A stretch of DNA of 64,000 bases from Candidatus Spyradenecus sp. (GTDB lineage Bacteria > Verrucomicrobiota > Kiritimatiellia > RFP12 > DVOR01). This document shows positions 9,730 to 20,600 of the stretch, piece after piece; position 1 is the first letter of the stretch; each line of letters opens with the position of its first letter. A program made the translations under genes and the position numbers. The stretch covers positions 15,272 through 79,271 of the forward strand of contig JAZRAG010000014.1 of the NCBI GenBank assembly GCA_045634445.1, written 5' to 3'. The notes under the pieces were generated by a model. It ran no database searches. It was not told where the DNA came from and worked only from the letters and a program-made list of their open reading frames with translations.

Positions 9730-10206
9730 TTAAAAGTCAAGTGCCGATAAAGCTTCACCAAGCGCTGCCTGGTCAACCGTTGTTTCAGGTGCGAGCTGTT
9801 CAGCAGCCCAGATTTCACCGTAGGTGACCGCACCCACGAAAGCGATGCGTCCCTTGATCCCCGCAAATTCCAAAAGACGATCGCTAATGCGGATACGCCC
9901 CTGAACATCAAGCGGAAGTTGCTCCGTGTTCGCACCGATAATGCGCAACTTCTGCGCCACCGTGGGGTCAGAGAAACGCTTTTCGAGCAATTTCTTCTGA
10001 ATTCCCTGCATGCGTTCATTCGTCAAAAGACGGAGACACTTCTCATGCGGGTCAGCCATCACGAAGACATAGGCCGGCTTCCCCATCGCATCACGCCATC
10101 CCGAAGGGATCGTTACGCGGCGCTTGGGGTCCAATGCATGCGTGGCGCTGCCCGAAAAAACAGCGTCGCCTTGCAAAGTTTTGACCTGGTTGTCACTTGA
10201 TTCCAT
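9730..10206 (-). CDS. mraZ: Transcriptional regulator MraZ
   Basis: Two MraZ repeats with DxxGR motifs (LDPKRRVTIP.. and LDVQGRIRIS..). Start chosen at MESSDNQ (ATG at 10206); the ORF-track start at 10308 would be a poorly conserved extension. Confidence 0.8.
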   Translation of the reverse strand: MESSDNQVKTLQGDAVFSGSATHALDPKRRVTIPSGWRDAMGKPAYVFVMADPHEKCLRLLTNERMQGIQKKLLEKRFSDPTVAQKLRIIGANTEQLPLDVQGRIRISDRLLEFAGIKGRIAFVGAVTYGEIWAAEQLAPETTVDQAALGEALSALDF

Positions 10207-10479: not shown

Positions 10480-11215
10480 GAAGCGCCTAACAGCTCAAAA
10501 AACTAACCACCAAAATGCGCCCGAGCGCGAAGTGCTGGGCGTGAGCGAAGCGAACCTTCCACGGCTAAAACACACAAAACACACTAAAGGGACGTGGGGG
10601 CTGCGCGCCCCCACTCCCCGCGGCAGGGCTGAGCCCTGCACGGCATGTGTTTAGGAGTGCTCCGCAGGGAAGCCTTCGCACGGGACCTTCGCATTTTCCG
10701 CAAGAACGCTATCTCTTACTCCGCTTGCCCCTCGGCGCAAGAGAAATCCTGCTGCGCAGTCTTCCTCCCGAGGAGGCTACGCGGAGCGCTAAAGCCTTCG
10801 CTGGTTTTCCACGAGTCGCATAGGTCTTACAAGATGCTCGAAATGGGCACATCGTCCCGCTGCCCTTCGGGCCCGGGCGCATCGAGCTCATTTCTCGTCA
10901 TCTTGCGCTGACAAACCATAACATTTGGGAAAGAACTCCAATAATTTACGTAAGCGTTCCGTCGTCATACTCGGGAAGCGGAATGCAAAGCATAACGCTT
11001 CTTGCGCCGAGTTGAGCGACGGAACAAGATTTGCGTTCTTGCGTAAAATTCGTCGTGCTTTTCGCAGTCCTGCGGGCAAAGCCCGCCCAGCCCCGAAGGG
11101 GCGACAGACACATCACGAGATGCGTTGGCTTTTCGTGGGCGAAGCCCTCGTGTTACGAAAAGATCAACGTATCCTAGTGTCCTTAGTGTTAAACCCACTC
11201 GCTGTCCTGCTGCTA
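10480..11215 (+). repeat. Copy A (longest) of a modular intergenic repeat family: CA-rich tract, GC hairpin, conserved blocks
   Basis: Blocks cagaaCTAACCAC, cacaaaacacac, GTGGGGGCtgcgcGCCCCCAC, gtgctccgcagg, ttccacgagtcgca, gctcgaaatgggcacatc, catttctcgtcatcttgcgct and cagccccgaaggggcgacagacacatca-gagatgcgttgg recur in inverted orientation at 20337-20560, and partly at 13093-13190. Confidence 0.5.
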
Positions 11216-13092: not shown

Positions 13093-13190
13093 AACTAAAG
13101 CGAAAAGGAAAGCCTAACATCACAGAAATTAACCACAAAACACACAAAACACACAAAAAATATGTGGGGGCTTCGCGCCCCCACCCCCGT
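13093..13190 (+). repeat. Copy B (5' fragment) of the repeat family: CA-tract plus GC hairpin
   Basis: cagaaactaa...aaccacaaaacacacaaaacacacaaaaaatatGTGGGGGCttcgcGCCCCCAC in the same orientation as copy A. Lies in the sulP promoter region, upstream of the tracrRNA. Confidence 0.5.
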
Positions 13191-13364: not shown

Positions 13365-13436
13365 AAAAAAGCCCTATACGGAGTACGTATAGGGAAGTCT
13401 TTCGACTGCGGCATATAGCCTTGTTGTGAAAAGACG
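13365..13436 (-). ncRNA. Predicted tracrRNA of the type II-C system (anti-repeat, nexus, terminator); the 5' end may extend to about 13460
   Basis: The minus strand reads (CUAGAAUUAAGCC)GUCUUUUCACAAC-AAGGCUAUAUGCCGCAG-UCGAAAGACUU-CCCUAUACG-uacuc-CGUAUAGGG-CUUUUUU. GUCUUUUCACAAC is a 13/13 complement of the repeat 5' end GUUGUGAAAAGAC. AAGGC..GCCGCA resembles the Neisseria Cas9 nexus. A 9-bp terminator stem is followed by U6. Confidence 0.6.
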
Positions 13437-13441
13437 GCTTA

Positions 13442-13471
13442 ATTCTAGCCCATCGAGGAAATGTTTGTCAA
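13442..13471 (-). promoter_or_regulatory. Candidate sigma70 promoter for the tracrRNA (-35 TTGACA, 18-nt spacer, -10 TAGAAT), divergent from cas9 and overlapping its 5' region
   Basis: Read on the minus strand. The predicted TSS falls at the start of the 13-nt perfect anti-repeat. Confidence 0.35.
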
Positions 13472-13486
13472 TAAGGAATTTTAATT

Positions 13487-16400
13487 ATGAAGCGTTTAGG
13501 GCTTGATTTGGGTACGTCCTCTTTGGGGTGGGCGATTATTGATGATGAGTTAATGAATACTGCGCCTACGGGGTCTGCTGCGCCGAATCCGATTGATTGT
13601 GGTGTTGTTATTTTCCCAGAGGGTATGAACCGTGATAAATCGGATAATTTATCTTCGCCGGCAGCAACGCGTCGTATGGCACGTGCTGCGCGCCGTTTAA
13701 TTTATCGTCGTAAGTTGCGTAAGTTTCACTTGCTTCGTGCGTTGATGGATGCTGGGATGTGTCCTTTGAGTGAAGCGGGGTTAAAAGCATGGAAGGATGA
13801 GGGTAAATACCCTGTGAATGATGAAGCATTTATGCTTTGGCTTCGGTCTACCAATGAAAGTAATCCCTACGCAGACCGCAATGCTGCAGCGACGGCGCCA
13901 GTGGATAAATTAGTTTTGGGACGCGCCCTTTATCATATGGCACAGCGTCGAGGATTTAAGAGTTCTAAAAAAGAGCAGTTTGAAGCTTTGAGCGCGGAAG
14001 ATGTTACTGAACAGAAAGCGAAGAAGGCTTCAGAGGCTACGCAGACAAAGCAGGCGATTGATACATTAACCGCAGAGCTTGAAAAAGAGCATTTGACACT
14101 TGGGCAGTATTTTTATCGCCTTTTCCAGCAGAATGTGAAAGAAATTAATGCGGCAGGTTCTGGCGAAGTAAAGACCGAGCGTGTTCGTGGTCGTAAGACG
14201 GGACGTATTGAACACTATCAAAAAGAATTTGAACGTATTGCTGAGGTTCAAGGCCTTTCAGATGAATTGCGTGAACGTTTTGCTTCAATTCTTTTCTTCC
14301 AGCGTCCGCTTCGTATTCAACGTCATACCGTTGGGTATTGTGCACTTGAGAAAGGTCAGAATGCGCGTAAGTATCGTCGTTGCTTAAAGAGTCATCCTGA
14401 TTTTGAATACTATCGTGCACTTTGTTTCTTGAACAATCTTCGCATTGGTGAAACGTTAGCTTCGGGGAAAGATCGTCTTCAGCGCAATGAAGGCCGACGT
14501 TTAACCGATGAAGAACGTCAAAAGGTGTTAGCCGCTCTTCAGCGTATGAGTTCGTGTACGATTGAAGACCTTTTGGGTAAAAAGAAGCCGTTACTTGACA
14601 AGAAGTACTACACGAATTATCGCCCGAAAGATGATGCGCCAGTGATGGAAATTCGCGCACGTCTGACGGATTTGGGCATTCCTGAAGATAAGTGGCAGAT
14701 GGCATTAAATGCGGCAGTTAACTTTGATGACTTAGAAAAATTACTTGCTTGGGCACAAAAGCCAACAACTTTGGGCCTTTCTGCAGCAGATGCTCGCACA
14801 TTTGTGAAGATTCGCTTCTCTACAGATCGTGCAGATTATAGTTTGCATGCTATTCGCAAGATTATCCCTTATTTAGAGCGTGGATATACCTTGCGTAAAG
14901 CGACTTTCTGTGCAAAATTGGGTGACATCATTCCGAATTATGCAGAAAAACAAGAGGCTGTCCTTCAAGGTTTGTTAGATTGTGAAGCGCGCTATGAAGC
15001 GGAAAAGGAACGTAAAAAGCAAAATCAACGCCTTAAGGTACATCCGCTTGAGGGATATCATTACAAGAATTATTTGGCTACGACTTGGGATGTTTCGGAA
15101 GAAGCATATAAACAATTGTATGTGGATATTACAGAGACGGATAAGTCTAATCCTGTGTTGCCTCCTGTGGATTTAGAGTCTATTCGTAATCCGCTCGCTT
15201 GCCGTTCGCTAACGGTTTTGCGTCGTCTCGTTAACACCCTTCGCGCAAATGGTAAAATTGATGGGGATACGAACATCTTTATTGAGTTGGCACATACGGT
15301 GAATAGTGCAAATCAGTGCCGTGCGATTGAGATGTATCAGTTAGAGCAAAAGAAGAAGCGCGAAGAGGCAGTCCTGAAACTTCAGGAAATTATTCAAGAG
15401 CACAATCTTAAGATTGCGATTAACGAAGACTCTATTTTGCGTTACATTCTTTGGCAAGAGCAGAATGGTTGTTGCGTTTATACCGGTCAATCGATTGGCT
15501 TAAAGGCAATGCTGACGGAGTGTGATATTGAACATACAATTCCGCGTTCGCGTGGCGGTACAAATGAACTTGATAACCTCACACTTTGCACCAGCCATTA
15601 CAATCGCAATGTGAAGAAAGGAAAAATCCCAACGGAGTGTCCGAATGCCTCCGAAGAGTGGTATGACCCTGAAACAAAGATGACTTATCCTGCACTTGAA
15701 TTAAGCACACCGATTAAGAATTGGAAAGATGAACTTCAAAAGCTTAGGAAAGAGTTGGACAAAAAGCCTAAGCGTGGGGGTGACATCTCGGCTTATAATG
15801 ACGCACGTAAGCGTTGGCTTGTGAAGCAGATGAAGTGTACCTATTTGAAAAAGAAACTTAAATCATTTGAACTCTCTGCCGAAACTGTAGGTGGCGATGG
15901 CTTCATGCCACGTCAAATGGTTGACACAGGCATTATTACCACACAGGCTGTGAAATTCTTAAAGAGCCGCTATGAATATGTCTTTACGCGTAATGGCGCG
16001 GTAACCGCAGCTGCGCGTAAGGCTTGGGGAATCCAACACGAAGATGAAAAGAAGTCTCGTATTGATCATGTCCATCACGCAGTAGATGCATGTGTGATTG
16101 CGGCATTGGATACGAAAGCTTTCACGGATATTTGTTCTCAATTGGGTAAAGACGAAACCTTTACGCGTTGGAATACCGTTGTTTGTGAGCCTTATCCAGA
16201 CTTTGCACAACGCGTGAATGATGCAACCGAAAGCATTTTGGTACGCCACCTTCCTACGAATCGCCAGACCAAACCGATTGATAAGCGCCGTCAACGTATC
16301 CCGTTGTCGGTTGTGAAACGCCTTAAACAAGCACAATTATCCTCTGCAAAGGCAAAAAAGACATCGACCATCCGCGGTAGTCTCCATAATGATACGATTT

Positions 16401-17173
16401 ATGGAAAGATAAAGCTGAATGGTGAAGAAGTTGTCGTGCTCCGTAAGACAATTACAGCAGCAGGTACAGACTTTAAGAAGTGGGTGACACAAGGCAATGT
16501 CGTTGACAAAGGCGTTTGCGATGCACTACGAGCGCAAATCGCTGCTTATGAAGCGCAAGGCATTGCAGAAAAGGATTTGCCTAACCAAGTCTATAAAATG
16601 CCATCGGGTATTCCCATTAAGAAAATCCGTATTAAGGTGGCAAAACCCAAAAATCCTGATGCGATTCGTCAACAAGTCTTTGTACCCAAAGCGCCTGTTT
16701 ATGGCTCAGGAAGCGACATCCTTGGATTTAATGTCTGTAAAGATGCGAAGGGTAAACTTGTCGCAGAGCAGATCTCTTTGCTTGATGAGGCAAAGTCTTT
16801 CGGAGAAGGGATGTCTTCTGTGGACAAGTGTTTCAGCATCTATCCCATGCAACTTGCTTTCGCATATGAAAAGACTCCAGAAGAATTAAAGGCGCTTTCT
16901 TCCCGAGAATTGATGAAACGATTGTATGTCGTACGTCAAGTGGAAGAAGGTCAAGTCACATTTTACTATCACCGAGAAGCGAGAAGAGCGAAATTGCTTG
17001 CTGAAGAGTTAGAGAAAAACGGAAAGTCAAAAAAAGGTGAGTCTAAATTAAACTTCATTATCCCAGAGCGGAAACTACGAGTTGCAAGAGGTGTATTCTT
17101 AGACCACATGCTTTATGAAGGGGTTCACTTTACACTTTCAATGGATGGTGAGGTAGAATGGCTCAATGATTAA
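13487..17173 (+). CDS. cas9: Cas9 (type II-C), 1228 aa
   Basis: RuvC-I MKRLGLDLGTSSLGWAII. Arg-rich bridge helix (RRMARAARRLIYRRKLRK). HNH (DIEHTIPRSRGGTNELDNLTLCTSHYNRNV). RuvC-III (HHAVDACVIAAL). RBS aagga 9 nt upstream. Confidence 0.95.
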   Translation: MKRLGLDLGTSSLGWAIIDDELMNTAPTGSAAPNPIDCGVVIFPEGMNRDKSDNLSSPAATRRMARAARRLIYRRKLRKFHLLRALMDAGMCPLSEAGLKAWKDEGKYPVNDEAFMLWLRSTNESNPYADRNAAATAPVDKLVLGRALYHMAQRRGFKSSKKEQFEALSAEDVTEQKAKKASEATQTKQAIDTLTAELEKEHLTLGQYFYRLFQQNVKEINAAGSGEVKTERVRGRKTGRIEHYQKEFERIAEVQGLSDELRERFASILFFQRPLRIQRHTVGYCALEKGQNARKYRRCLKSHPDFEYYRALCFLNNLRIGETLASGKDRLQRNEGRRLTDEERQKVLAALQRMSSCTIEDLLGKKKPLLDKKYYTNYRPKDDAPVMEIRARLTDLGIPEDKWQMALNAAVNFDDLEKLLAWAQKPTTLGLSAADARTFVKIRFSTDRADYSLHAIRKIIPYLERGYTLRKATFCAKLGDIIPNYAEKQEAVLQGLLDCEARYEAEKERKKQNQRLKVHPLEGYHYKNYLATTWDVSEEAYKQLYVDITETDKSNPVLPPVDLESIRNPLACRSLTVLRRLVNTLRANGKIDGDTNIFIELAHTVNSANQCRAIEMYQLEQKKKREEAVLKLQEIIQEHNLKIAINEDSILRYILWQEQNGCCVYTGQSIGLKAMLTECDIEHTIPRSRGGTNELDNLTLCTSHYNRNVKKGKIPTECPNASEEWYDPETKMTYPALELSTPIKNWKDELQKLRKELDKKPKRGGDISAYNDARKRWLVKQMKCTYLKKKLKSFELSAETVGGDGFMPRQMVDTGIITTQAVKFLKSRYEYVFTRNGAVTAAARKAWGIQHEDEKKSRIDHVHHAVDACVIAALDTKAFTDICSQLGKDETFTRWNTVVCEPYPDFAQRVNDATESILVRHLPTNRQTKPIDKRRQRIPLSVVKRLKQAQLSSAKAKKTSTIRGSLHNDTIYGKIKLNGEEVVVLRKTITAAGTDFKKWVTQGNVVDKGVCDALRAQIAAYEAQGIAEKDLPNQVYKMPSGIPIKKIRIKVAKPKNPDAIRQQVFVPKAPVYGSGSDILGFNVCKDAKGKLVAEQISLLDEAKSFGEGMSSVDKCFSIYPMQLAFAYEKTPEELKALSSRELMKRLYVVRQVEEGQVTFYYHREARRAKLLAEELEKNGKSKKGESKLNFIIPERKLRVARGVFLDHMLYEGVHFTLSMDGEVEWLND

Positions 17174-18071
17174 ACGGACGCTTTGCTTCTCAACTCCAGG
17201 AAAACTCCGTCTTCACTTGCGCCAACTTCTTTGGTGTGGTGAAGATGGAAGAGAAGCAAGTGTGCCCATCGAAGATCTTGGGATTGTCATCTTAGAGTCC
17301 CCCTTAATCACTGTCAGTATGGCGCTATTACAAGCGCTAACAGAGGCATGTGTCGCGGTTGTCCTCTGTGATGCGTCCCATCTCCCTTCAGGCTATCTCC
17401 TTCCACAAGTATCACATACCCTTGCGAGTCGCTTTTTGAGAAATCAAATTGAACTTACAGATGCTCAATCGAGGCGCTTGTGGCAACAAATTGTTATCCG
17501 TAAAATCCAAAATCAAGCGTCTGTAATTCGGACATTAAATCCGCAAAAGGCGAACGAATTATGTGAGATGGCAGAGTTTGTTAAACGAGGAGATGTCACA
17601 AATATTGAAGCGCAAGCTGCGAAACTCTATTTTACGGCTTTTCCAATTTCAGAAGATGTCTTTCATCGTTCGCGTTATGGTACCATGCCTAATGCGGCAT
17701 TAAACTATGGATATGCGATTTTAAGAGCCGCAGTCGCACGATGTTTAGTAGCCTCAGGATTGAACACCACCTTAGGAATCCATCATCGTAATCAATATAA
17801 CCACTTTTGCCTTGCAGATGATGTGATGGAGCCCTATCGTCCCTTTGTAGATGCAATCGTCTTAGAGCATTTAGAGGCGTTCGAGAAAGCAGAAGAACCT
17901 ACGCAAGTCTCCACAAAAGGAAAGCAAATCCTCTTGCCGTTCTTGACAATGGATGTGCGAATAGGAGAATCAACGCGACCTCTTTTTAACGCCCTTCAAT
18001 TAACCACAGCATCTCTCGCACGATGTATCTGTAATGAACAAAAAACGCTCGAATTACCATCATTCCCATGA
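17166..18071 (+). CDS. cas1: Cas1 integrase
   Basis: Overlaps cas9 by 8 nt. Cas1-like conserved acidic and His residues. Position between cas9 and cas2. Confidence 0.9.
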   Translation: MIKRTLCFSTPGKLRLHLRQLLWCGEDGREASVPIEDLGIVILESPLITVSMALLQALTEACVAVVLCDASHLPSGYLLPQVSHTLASRFLRNQIELTDAQSRRLWQQIVIRKIQNQASVIRTLNPQKANELCEMAEFVKRGDVTNIEAQAAKLYFTAFPISEDVFHRSRYGTMPNAALNYGYAILRAAVARCLVASGLNTTLGIHHRNQYNHFCLADDVMEPYRPFVDAIVLEHLEAFEKAEEPTQVSTKGKQILLPFLTMDVRIGESTRPLFNALQLTTASLARCICNEQKTLELPSFP

Positions 18072-18415
18072 GTGAAGTTGAGTTTACAGCGATTAACCAT
18101 TACAAAGCAATGTGGCTTTACGCACTCTTTGATCTCCCAACAGAAACTAAACGGCAACGAAAAGCCGCTGCACAGTTTCGTAAAGGCCTCTTGCAAGATG
18201 GCTTTACAATGCTTCAATTTTCTGTGTATATTCGCCATTGTGCATCAAGAGAAAATGCAGAAGTTCACATTAAGCGCGTGAGAATGATAACACCAGAAGA
18301 GGGGCGTGTTGCGATTCTTGCGGTAACGGATAGACAATTCGATCAAATGGTCATTCTTTACGGGAAAAAAGAAAAACCTGCGCCACCTGCGCCAGTTCAA
18401 CTAGAACTTTTTTAA
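18068..18415 (+). CDS. cas2: Cas2
   Basis: 115 aa. Overlaps cas1 by 4 nt. Immediately precedes the array. Confidence 0.85.
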   Translation: MSEVEFTAINHYKAMWLYALFDLPTETKRQRKAAAQFRKGLLQDGFTMLQFSVYIRHCASRENAEVHIKRVRMITPEEGRVAILAVTDRQFDQMVILYGKKEKPAPPAPVQLELF

Positions 18416-18463
18416 ACAAAAAAAGAAACCGATTGACTCTTTTTTGAAGAAATCAATCGGTTT
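18416..18463 (-). terminator. Strong minus-strand intrinsic terminator between cas2 and the array; it would stop antisense pre-crRNA read-through
   Basis: Minus strand reads GAAACCGAUUGA-(16-nt loop)-UCAAUCGGUUUC followed by UUUUUUUGUUU. On the plus strand the same hairpin has no U-tract. Confidence 0.6.
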
Positions 18464-18477
18464 CTAAGTCTTCGGTA

Positions 18478-18498
18478 TGCTCCTTAAGATGTTATACA
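18478..18498. repeat. Inverted partial copy (18/21) of the CRISPR repeat, 21 bp from the first repeat: a hairpin partner, anti-repeat-like element
   Basis: ctccttaagatgttatacaat versus cttcttaagatttgatacaat (the reverse complement of the repeat's first 21 nt), with a 19-nt gap to the repeat at 18520. Confidence 0.5.
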
Positions 18499-18519
18499 AT
18501 AAAGACTTATGCATTCAAT

Positions 18520-20336
18520 ATTGTATCAAATCTTAAGAAGATGTCTTTTCACAACTCTCAAGCGGATTGACGTTACATCTCCAAAATTGTATCAAATCTT
18601 AAGAAGATGTCTTTTCACAACTGTACTTTACTAACATTAAGTGTCAGATTGATTGTATCAAATCTTAAGAAGATGTCTTTTCACAACTCTATATTGTTTA
18701 GTTTTGCAATCTCTTTGATTGTATCAAATCTTAAGAAGATGTCTTTTCACAACTGGCGGCCATTGAGACCTTCCGTCGTCAGAATTGTATCAAATCTTAA
18801 GAAGATGTCTTTTCACAACAACCTTCTTCAAGAATAGATTTAGAAACTTATTGTATCAAATCTTAAGAAGATGTCTTTTCACAACTGAAGAAGCGTATTC
18901 TTATGTTTGTTCTCAATTGTATCAAATCTTAAGAAGATGTCTTTTCACAACTCCTTTAGTCTATTCAACTGTTCAACGAGAATTGTATCAAATCTTAAGA
19001 AGATGTCTTTTCACAACACTTTGAACATTATCAATGTTTCGCAGACTATTGTATCAAATCTTAAGAAGATGTCTTTTCACAACTTCCGTTTAGCTGCGCT
19101 TTTCCTCTCTTCCATTGTATCAAATCTTAAGAAGATGTCTTTTCACAACACGAAAACCCAGAAGCAATCTTTTAAAGAATTGTATCAAATCTTAAGAAGA
19201 TGTCTTTTCACAACTCCGAACGGGAAAAAATGGTTTCAATCGTAATTGTATCAAATCTTAAGAAGATGTCTTTTCACAACCGTTATTTCAGCACTTTCTC
19301 GCGGTTTTGAATTGTATCAAATCTTAAGAAGATGTCTTTTCACAACTTTTAGTTCACAAACAGGAACATTAAAAGGATTGTATCAAATCTTAAGAAGATG
19401 TCTTTTCACAACCTATCTGCCTTTCCCTGGGTCTAGTTATGAATTGTATCAAATCTTAAGAAGATGTCTTTTCACAACTATAACTGGTATGCTGCTTGGT
19501 GCGGTGTCATTGTATCAAATCTTAAGAAGATGTCTTTTCACAACCTAAAACCCAGAAGCAATCTTTTAAAGAGAATTGTATCAAATCTTAAGAAGATGTC
19601 TTTTCACAACTGCAGTATCGCGTGCCGATGCTGGAGGCGGATTGTATCAAATCTTAAGAAGATGTCTTTTCACAACACCGCCCGAAGCAGTAATCGAAGC
19701 TAGTGCATTGTATCAAATCTTAAGAAGATGTCTTTTCACAACTGCGCTTGTAGCCATTGGTGGGATCAGCCAATTGTATCAAATCTTAAGAAGATGTCTT
19801 TTCACAACCACCGGCTCAAGATTGCGCGTGCTTTAGGGATTGTATCAAATCTTAAGAAGATGTCTTTTCACAACCTCCGGTGGCCCCATCTACCGCCTCG
19901 CCATATTGTATCAAATCTTAAGAAGATGTCTTTTCACAACATACCGACGTTGATTTCAATCAGTGTCCGGATTGTATCAAATCTTAAGAAGATGTCTTTT
20001 CACAACAATTGATGAATGTTGATATTTCAGATATTAATTGTATCAAATCTTAAGAAGATGTCTTTTCACAACAATCAGTTGGTATACAGGTTCTGGAATC
20101 GCATTGTATCAAATCTTAAGAAGATGTCTTTTCACAACAAAATATACTCGCAATACACAAAAGACCCTATTGTATCAAATCTTAAGAAGATGTCTTTTCA
20201 CAACTATCATGGCGACAATTAAAACAACAATAGCATTGTATCAAATCTTAAGAAGATGTCTTTTCACAACTACTGACGCGTTTAATTATATTTGTTCACA
20301 ATTGTATCAAATCTTAAGAAGATGTCTTTTCACAAC
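18520..20336 (-). CRISPR. CRISPR array: 28 copies of a 36-bp repeat (GTTGTGAAAAGACATCTTCTTAAGATTTGATACAAT in the inferred crRNA sense) and 27 spacers of 29-30 bp
   Basis: Exact 66-bp periodicity. All repeats are identical. The orientation call (minus strand) rests on the GTTGT...ACAAT termini, an extended -10 TGATACAAT at the repeat 3' end, the anti-repeat of the upstream tracrRNA, and the minus-strand terminator at 18416-18463. Confidence 0.95.
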
Positions 20337-20560
20337 CAACGCATCTCTTGATGTGTCTGTCGCCCCTTTGGGGCTGGAAAAGCGCGAGCGCAAGATGACG
20401 AGAAATGGAGATGTGCCCATTTCGAGCAGCGTGCAAGATTCGTGCGACTCGTGGAAATCCCTCGTCGTCCTGCGGAGCACCTTTTTGTGTGTTTTGTGTT
20501 TTTTGTGGTTAGTTTCTGTGCCGTCAGGCACTCGTATCCTGTGGTTTATTTCCTCACGTG
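20337..20560 (-). repeat. Copy C of the repeat family (inverted relative to A and B), abutting the terminal CRISPR repeat
   Basis: The reverse complement aligns block-for-block with copy A (cagaaactaaccac...cacaaaacacac, gtgctccgcagg, ttccacgagtcgca, gctcgaaatgggcacatc, catttctcgtcatcttgcgct, cagcccc-aaggggcgacagacacatcaagagatgcgttgg). The gcgttgg end lies 0 bp from the repeat. Confidence 0.5.
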
Positions 20561-20600
20561 CTGCGCGTGGCGCTTGTTTGGGGGTGTTGGGTGCTGCCAT

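Follow-up and report, generated by a model that had tools for sequence, protein, structure and literature searches.

The CRISPR array in a 64,000-nt stretch of Candidatus Spyradenecus sp. DNA (contig JAZRAG010000014.1), the whole of which is called the window here, was analyzed together with its cas genes and with related loci that were fetched for comparison with the window and carry L-numbers (e.g. L001, L085). The locus runs in the order trans-activating CRISPR RNA (tracrRNA, minus strand), cas9-cas1-cas2 (plus strand), terminator, leader and array. Probably it is a type II-C CRISPR-Cas9 locus whose array is read on the minus strand toward its own leader, from one promoter in each repeat, with a terminator that ends the transcripts before cas2. 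The evidence is comparative and comes from the sequences themselves. The array and the promoter element it contains are as follows.

18520-20336, CRISPR RNA (crRNA) sense on the minus strand: CRISPR array with 27 spacers between 28 identical 36-nt repeats
18520-18528 in the leader-adjacent repeat, minus strand: extended -10 box TGATACAAT, the lowest-coordinate 9 nt of all 28 repeats, with the last copy at 20301-20309

Twenty-six spacers are 30 nt long and one is 29 nt. On the minus strand the repeat is GTTGTGAAAAGACATCTTCTTAAGATTTGATACAAT (GTTGTGAAAAGAC...TGATACAAT), which begins with GTTGT and ends with ACAAT, and its last 9 nt, TGATACAAT, fit the extended -10 consensus TGnTAnnnT. The minus-strand reading, both repeat ends and the extended -10 element had been pointed out in a preliminary description of this DNA, and all of them are where it had put them. 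The Neisseria meningitidis repeat used there for comparison, GTTGTAGCTCCCTTTCTCATTTCGCAGTGCTACAAT, which ends in TGCTACAAT, was also found in print, in three papers that include PMC12477760. The 5′ GTTGTGA part of the repeat is kept family-wide and the 3′ part is variable. No CRISPR-related paper was found that contains the repeat core 13-mers (GTTGTGAAAAGAC and its complement).

Pairing with the tracrRNA places the crRNA on the minus strand

The strand of the crRNA was read from the tracrRNA, which lies upstream of cas9.

13442-13471, minus strand: tracrRNA promoter TTGACA-18-TAGAAT, matching 11/12 consensus positions in the consensus scan
13366-13435, minus strand: tracrRNA of ~70 nt, with anti-repeat, nexus, second hairpin and intrinsic terminator

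The upstream anti-repeat named in the preliminary description is present, at 13423-13440 on the minus strand. In the tracrRNA the 13-nt anti-repeat GUCUUUUCACAAC (13435-13423, minus strand) pairs without interruption over 13 nt with the repeat 5′ end, the complementarity by which a tracrRNA is recognized. The nexus is AAGGCUAUAUGCC, and the terminator stem at 13394-13372 is followed by a U run. The RNA folds with -24.9 kcal/mol (z = -5.6) and presumably starts near 13435, judging from the position of its -10 box. A nexus-type motif, AAGG[CT]TAT[AT][AT]GCC, was found upstream of cas9 in 67 fetched loci, its position and strand being the same in all of them. In every case ...CACAA[CT] stands before it, with the -10 box 6-9 nt upstream of the anti-repeat, and the second hairpin shows compensatory changes among relatives.

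In Cas9 systems such as those of S. pyogenes and N. meningitidis, the repeat part of the crRNA comes after the spacer, and its 5′ end is paired with the anti-repeat 3′ end beside the nexus. When the 16 nt before the nexus were compared with the first 16 nt of the repeat, a mean of 13.2/16 positions paired in the GTTGTG sense and 6.9/16 in the opposite sense. Moreover, cognate anti-repeat and repeat partners, e.g. GCTGTAAAAAGAC with GTCTTTTTACAGC, outpaired all 1000 shuffled pairings, indicating covariation. Because only minus-strand repeats pair with the conserved tracrRNA anti-repeat, these comparisons show that the predicted crRNA is spacer-GUUGUGAAAAGAC..., on the minus strand and antisense to cas9-cas1-cas2. 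The direction of transcription was likewise taken from tracrRNA pairing. The earlier proposal that the array runs antisense to the cas genes, in an orientation consistent with the upstream anti-repeat, is thus supported by pairing and covariation. In arrays that are co-directional with cas9 (L003, L004, L005, L008), the tracrRNA is still in place and the transcribed-sense repeat still reads GTTGTG. As a separate observation, the L003 tracrRNA (~9850-9945, minus strand) has its post-nexus segment GCCGTAGTCGTGACTACAT tandemly repeated about three times.

Probable promoter elements at the repeat ends

In the consensus scan every one of the 28 repeats gave a minus-strand call, AAGACA-16-TACAAT with TG. 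These make up 28 of the 48 promoter-like sites in the region, which compares with 15.2 ± 4.2 sites in shuffles. Across the family, 16 of 59 distinct repeats have TGnTAnnnT right at their 3′ end; in shuffled repeats the motif falls there in ~1.3% of cases (0.76 per 59 repeats, at most 5), and in the reverse complements in none. Repeat ends of this form occur in at least three clades (TGATACAAT, TGGTACAAT, TGCTATATT, TGTTATATT and TGTTATAGT), and across these variants only the consensus positions are invariant, while the free positions differ. TAnnnT forms the 3′ end of 23 distinct repeats, and in 16 of these a TG stands exactly one base upstream, against about 1 in 16 expected by chance. TACAAT also serves as the -10 box of the tracrRNA promoters in the close relatives L081, L001 and L002, and TGnTAnnnT sites are present upstream of purA, the SulP transporter, cas9 and other window genes.

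The flank on the other side of the array was compared among relatives.

20337-20586, minus strand: trailer-side flank, 5′ of the array in the crRNA sense, with no promoter-like site and not conserved in relatives

A consensus scan of the 250 nt that precede the array on its 5′ side found no promoter-like site in the window, L085 or L093 and one weak site in L088. Among 14 arrays without the repeat -10 box, 12 have a promoter-like site that points into the array and lies 45-140 nt upstream of the trailer-side repeat. In 9 of these 14 the site is a near-consensus TGnTATA[AC]T, which is found in 0.9% of random 250-nt windows; relatives with a near-consensus TGnTATAAT at the trailer side are L008, L021, L022, L028, L032, L036, L053, L060 and L063. 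Arrays with the repeat-borne box, on the other hand, have an external site in only 3/9 cases, which is near the background of 18%; decayed repeat copies contain two of the three. The two kinds of promoter are thus complementary in distribution (Fisher p = 0.023, or 0.0066 without the two decayed-copy sites). The whole family appears to be read toward the 3′ leader, via either one trailer-side promoter or one promoter per repeat. A single Cas9 family with both arrangements is a natural experiment, in which the selective reason for repeat promoters becomes testable.

The extended -10 at the repeat 3′ end is most likely a real promoter. Motif enrichment, the lack of an external promoter and the replacement of one kind of promoter by the other all support the preliminary proposal that every repeat carries one. 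Several points weigh against it. TGnTAnnnT is only modestly enriched in the intergenic DNA of the window (16/101 sites in 11.6% of the sequence), the -35 element AAGACA is weak (4/6), and 36/59 distinct family repeats (~60%) have no -10 box, so that this Cas9 family can do without one. The test of complementary distribution covers 23 arrays that are phylogenetically non-independent. The repeat 3′ end is, in addition, leader-proximal and part of a terminal inverted repeat (GTTGT...ACAAT), so that its conservation could partly serve the integrase. Finally, the orientation receives no support from the side of a protospacer-adjacent motif (PAM), because no protospacer was found: not for the 27 spacers of the window, by BLAST against phages and plasmids or by four exact scans of viral contigs with window spacers or with the core common to two near-duplicate spacers; not for the spacers of the L041 and L033 arrays, by BLAST against phages; and not for 1325 family spacers compared with all fetched loci.

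The missing protospacers for all 27 window spacers would also agree with a silent or decaying relic, in which the motif has no present function. Such a relic is highly improbable, since 28/28 repeats are identical, cas9, cas1 and cas2 are intact, and the tracrRNA, leader and terminator are both intact and conserved. A relative that lacks cas1, cas2 and leader (L093) has mutations in 11/26 repeats, by contrast.

The leader lies at the 3′ end of the array

The acquisition end of the array was located from its flanking sequences and from variant repeats.

18465-18519, minus strand: acquisition leader between cas2 and the array, on the 3′ side of the array in the crRNA sense

The leader motif of the window, ATTGA..CTTTATTG at 18519-18494, has the family form ATTG[GA]-N(8-12)-YCTTTAYTG. 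It abuts the last (3′) repeat in 36/45 arrays of this type and stands at the 5′ flank in 1/36. The motif is found on the cas-distal side in L004, L005 and L008, having moved there together with the array. The 5′-most repeat deviates from the consensus in 15/36 arrays and the 3′-most in 0/36, and additional decayed units are seen beyond the array 5′ end in relatives. In L085 the sole variant repeat is the distal-most one, and it is identical to the consensus repeat of L081 and L093. New repeats are copied from the leader-adjacent repeat, and old variants persist at the far end. Because old repeat variants survive at the far (5′) end, the acquisition end would be the 18520 side. Conserved motif and repeat variants together show the predicted acquisition leader to be the cas2-proximal flank, 18465-18519, and the newest spacers should be found at the 18520 end.

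With a leader at the cas2 side and a minus-strand crRNA, the array is therefore read toward its leader. The same polarity has been described for type II-C, with acquisition at the 3′ end and transcription toward the leader or variable end (PMC12638026, PMC8092290, PMC12477760; for Riemerella, PMC5006608), and type II-C arrays are oriented opposite to cas2 and transcribed toward the variable end (PMC7665894). The preliminary description had put the leader-proximal end at the 20336 side. This part has to be given up, as it is contradicted by the leader motif on the cas2 side, by decayed repeats at the end that corresponds to 20336 and by the published II-C polarity. Orientation tools that assume an upstream leader would mis-orient these arrays.

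Spacer comparison adds a little to this. L088 and L089 have 26 spacers in the same order and differ only at the cas2-proximal end, where L089 runs into a 100-N scaffold gap; the pair is therefore only suggestive of spacer turnover on the cas2 side. L082 and L083 have no spacer in common and hence give no evidence of turnover, and the P0103 and P0119 contig sets hold near-identical arrays that are uninformative on polarity.

A canonical layout, with a plus-strand promoter in the cas2-side leader and plus-strand crRNAs with AUUGUAUCAAAUC... handles, was also considered. A leader promoter upstream of 18520 together with plus-strand crRNAs had been named in the preliminary description as the finding that would count against its own orientation. 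A leader is indeed present there, upstream of the array on the plus strand and with TACAAT at 18495-18500; moreover, the cas2 hairpin has no U tract on the plus strand, so that read-through from the cas operon into the array is possible. However, the consensus scan called no plus-strand promoter in the leader, and the TACAAT belongs to a leader motif whose counterparts in other clades (TCCAAT, ATATTA, ATCAAT) do not resemble a -10 box. Plus-strand repeats cannot pair with the tracrRNA, having the same sequence as the anti-repeat instead of its complement (the 6.9/16 pairs given above). In L004, L005 and L008, array and leader are inverted together and the tracrRNA has not moved. Taken together, these observations make the canonical layout extremely improbable.

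Arrays of another type were seen in the Prevotella-type loci L044-L052, L056 and L062. They are co-directional with cas9, have a decayed repeat at the 3′ end and no leader motif, and their repeats end in GATACAAC, with the final T missing. On these features the Prevotella-type arrays have the canonical polarity, opposite to that of the Kiritimatiellae/Lentisphaeria arrays.

A terminator separates the array from cas2

18418-18464, minus strand: intrinsic terminator for array-sense transcripts, with a ~17-bp stem at 18464-18425 and U7 at 18424-18418, abutting the cas2 stop codon

The terminator is kept with compensatory changes in L081, L082 and L086. A terminator-like hairpin, often bidirectional, follows the last repeat at an almost uniform distance of 92-108 nt in many relatives and lies within 170 nt in 28/44 arrays. 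In the window the plus-strand version of the hairpin has no U tract. A strong minus-strand terminator that guards cas2 from antisense read-through had been postulated from the window alone; hairpin and U7 are present, and their conservation in relatives shows a predicted minus-strand terminator placed to stop array transcripts before cas2.

Two other candidates in this part of the locus were rejected. The sole Rfam match, to the Bacteroides small RNA family BTnc231 at 18422-18559 (minus strand), scores 27 bits, against a gathering score of 80, and is explained by the leader-repeat hairpin described below and the terminator. A short palindrome in the middle of the repeat was considered as a terminator for each unit, but it lacks a U tract, and the repeat of the window folds weakly, with -2.5 kcal/mol (z = +0.6).

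An inverted copy of the repeat end in the leader

The leader holds, at 18500-18480, a copy of the repeat's 3′ half that is inverted and imperfect and is separated from the repeat by 19 nt (18519-18501). Together with the repeat end it covers 18480-18541 in the window, and it is also present in L001, L015, L028, L054 and more than 30 other loci. When the reverse complement of the last 22 repeat nt was matched to its own leader for 39 distinct repeats, the mean score was 9.08, against 6.25 ± 0.23 in permuted pairings (maximum 7.03 in 2000). Minimum-energy folds gave 15.7 repeat-leader pairs for cognate and 8.6 for non-cognate partners. In an alignment of 37 sequences, the junction helix and a small inner hairpin have standard pairs in 78.8% of cells, compared with ~40% when the partners are slid. 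The covariation score of leader and repeat was 0.419 versus 0.165, and 0/500 shuffles reached 0.419; one covarying pair, for example, is AU in 11 sequences, UA in 9, GC in 8 and GU in 5. No asymmetry between G.U and A.C was seen among the leader-repeat mismatches (18 vs 18). Because both mismatches are equally frequent, the constraint is suggested to act at the level of DNA or protein, e.g. integrase recognition, and not on one RNA strand.

The copy at 18480-18500 was also examined as a second tracrRNA or anti-repeat. This was rejected: it has no nexus, it lies within the conserved leader, and the L082 copy ignores changes in the middle of the repeat.

The covariation bears on a second reading of the array, in which a single long minus-strand precursor is made, whether from a promoter beyond the trailer end that went undetected or by transcription running on antisense to purA, and the -10 box is kept only for the integrase. 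The last 5-8 nt of the repeat do co-vary with the leader copy, and the equal G.T and A.C mismatches (18 vs 18) point to a constraint on DNA or protein; furthermore, many relatives use a single trailer-side promoter and the -35 is weak. On the other hand, the terminal bases are preserved in the leader copy, whereas the TG is not and the hexamer's first T often is not, so the promoter-specific positions are conserved in the repeats alone. TG stands one base upstream in 16/23 of the TAnnnT repeats, where chance would give ~1 in 16, and the 250 nt 5′ of the array hold no promoter-like site in the window, L085 or L093. We consider a single precursor unlikely and prefer the repeat-borne promoters.

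Literature searches returned no description of a leader inverted half-repeat for type II-C, which by itself does not prove novelty. As a tentative and rather doubtful extension, the inverted copy may be a two-site or cruciform-like mark of the 3′ leader end for Cas1-Cas2, or the leader-repeat hairpin may shape the 3′ end of the newest crRNA. Combined with repeat promoters and a tracrRNA that starts at the 13-nt anti-repeat, guides would then be made without endonucleolytic 5′ processing of either RNA. If this is true, a two-site recognition element would be previously undescribed and the leader would be more than an anchoring sequence.

A model for guide production

Under the repeat-promoter reading, each TGATACAAT, with the weak -35 AAGACA 16 nt away, would start transcription ~6-8 nt into the adjacent 30-nt spacer; this position is predicted because the box ends at the last repeat base and standard spacing is assumed. 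Nested primary transcripts would result, with 5′ ends set by initiation and a guide of ~23-24 nt left in each. All array transcripts would end at the terminator and have their 3′ ends trimmed. The leader-adjacent repeat would fire into the leader only and give an RNA of ~95 nt that is not a crRNA. With one promoter per repeat, the newest spacers would still be expressed, although they are farthest from the trailer end. The tracrRNA, for its part, would start directly at the 13-nt anti-repeat (13-16 nt across the 67 loci). The duplex is probably too short for classical co-processing by RNase III, and because the tracrRNA appears to start at the 13-nt anti-repeat, RNase III is probably not needed.

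The cas genes and their lineage

13487-17173, plus strand: cas9, 1228 aa (TIGR01865, 3.4e-113, 380 bits against a cut-off of 100)
17166-18071, plus strand: cas1, type II, NMENI type (TIGR03639, 2.6e-79)
18068-18415, plus strand: cas2 (TIGR01573, 1.6e-19), stop codon at 18413-18415

In the profile search all three genes were above the NCBIfam cut-offs. Both csn2, the mark of II-A, and cas4, that of II-B, are absent at the locus, leaving cas1 and cas2 alone as the adaptation module. The array follows cas9-cas1-cas2 directly, and the flanking genes encode a SulP/DauA transporter and purA. By its gene content this is a type II-C CRISPR-Cas9 locus. The closest solved structures to the window Cas9 are II-C Cas9s (Nme, Geo), matched over the HNH/RuvC region only, with E ~1e-22. 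Nearly all of its sequence relatives belong to uncultured Kiritimatiellae, Lentisphaeria and Victivallales of gut and rumen, and more distant ones are from Prevotella and other Bacteroidota II-C loci. On these relationships the locus probably belongs to a Kiritimatiellae/Lentisphaeria-Bacteroidota II-C lineage.

Two related loci, L093 (13901-15582) and L094, have a Cas9 of the same 90%-identity protein cluster as the window, with the array directly after it. L093 has no cas1, cas2 or leader, and some of the point mutations in its 11/26 altered repeats fall inside the -10 box. Spacer acquisition looks to have been lost from the L093/L094 array.

Comparison with known type II-C systems

Repeat promoters are known from two systems. 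In the N. meningitidis II-C locus promoters lie in the repeats and transcription starts inside the spacers (PMC5965381, PMC12477760), at the sixth spacer nucleotide, a position comparable to the start predicted for the window, and no crRNA comes from the leader-adjacent repeat of the Neisseria R26 allele (PMC12477760). Campylobacter jejuni also has repeat-borne -10 boxes and starts inside spacers (PMC3656092). The window locus probably falls into the same class by a -10 box in all 28 repeats, no external promoter in the consensus scan and an array read toward the leader. It resembles N. meningitidis in having cas9, cas1 and cas2 only and a 36-nt repeat of the form GTTGT...TGnTACAAT (PMC12477760). 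Repeat promoters, starts within spacers, an array read toward the leader, addition of spacers there and a leader-adjacent repeat without crRNA are further likenesses, all of them predicted for the window from its sequence. The window Cas9 is distant, however (E ~1e-22, HNH/RuvC only), and has 1228 aa against 1082 aa. The tracrRNA lies divergently upstream of cas9 and its anti-repeat is only 13 nt long, whereas the Neisseria anti-repeat spans nearly the whole repeat. The minimal II-C system of C. jejuni differs in that RNase III cuts the repeat:tracrRNA duplex there (PMC3656092), while the window duplex is predicted to be too short, and in that its Cas9 belongs to another clade.

The Bacteroidota II-C systems of Riemerella anatipestifer (PMC5006608), Flavobacterium columnare (PMC8092290) and F. 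psychrophilum (PMC10309648) share the Cas9/tracrRNA lineage of the window: upstream of cas9 they have the nexus AAGGCTATAAGCCGAAG and, as anti-repeat, a short ...ATTCACAAC. They also have the leader between cas2 and the array, strain-specific spacers at that end and transcription toward the variable end. In contrast to the window, their repeats are mostly 46-47 nt long and they use Bacteroidota-type promoters (TTG or TAnnTTTG) and not a sigma-70 extended -10. The authors of the Riemerella study reported no promoter in the repeats (PMC5006608). Repeat-embedded promoters and leaderward arrays are therefore already established for II-C; what is new here is the uncultured gut Kiritimatiellae lineage and not a principle. 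For the uncharacterised family of this 1228-aa Cas9, the analysis fixes the predicted crRNA strand, guide end, tracrRNA and leader, on which spacer-host assignment, PAM discovery and the design of single guide RNAs depend.

Further observations on repeats, spacers and flanks

The palindrome in the middle of the repeat (18533-18545 in the first copy) shows compensatory substitutions between close relatives, with the variants ATCTT/AAGAT, ACCTT/AAGGT, TCCC/GGGA and CCC/GGG (L001, L081, L082, L086, L006). The GC content of the spacers changes in blocks, being 0.37 in spacers 1-13, 0.54 in 14-22 and 0.32 in 23-27, compared with 0.50 for the window. The last spacer base in the crRNA sense, beside GTTGTG, is A in 14 spacers, T in 8, G in 5 and never C.

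The spacers at 19150-19178 and 19545-19574 have a common 26-nt core, AAAACCCAGAAGCAATCTTTTAAAGA, for which exact scans of viral contigs gave no match. Because both ends differ and the offset is 1-2 nt, the two spacers are, on this comparison, separate acquisitions from variants of one target.

A 39-nt inverted repeat brackets the entire tracrRNA-cas-array locus, at 13121-13159 and 20482-20520. The two copies are 37/39 identical, GT-rich and carry ...GTGTGTTTTGTG..GGTTAaTTTCTGTG, and each arm faces an outward gene, that of the SulP transporter or purA. Upstream, at ~10480-10600, there is a third copy that is looser but has this GC-rich hairpin too, and the element looks like a dispersed intergenic element and not a CRISPR-specific one.

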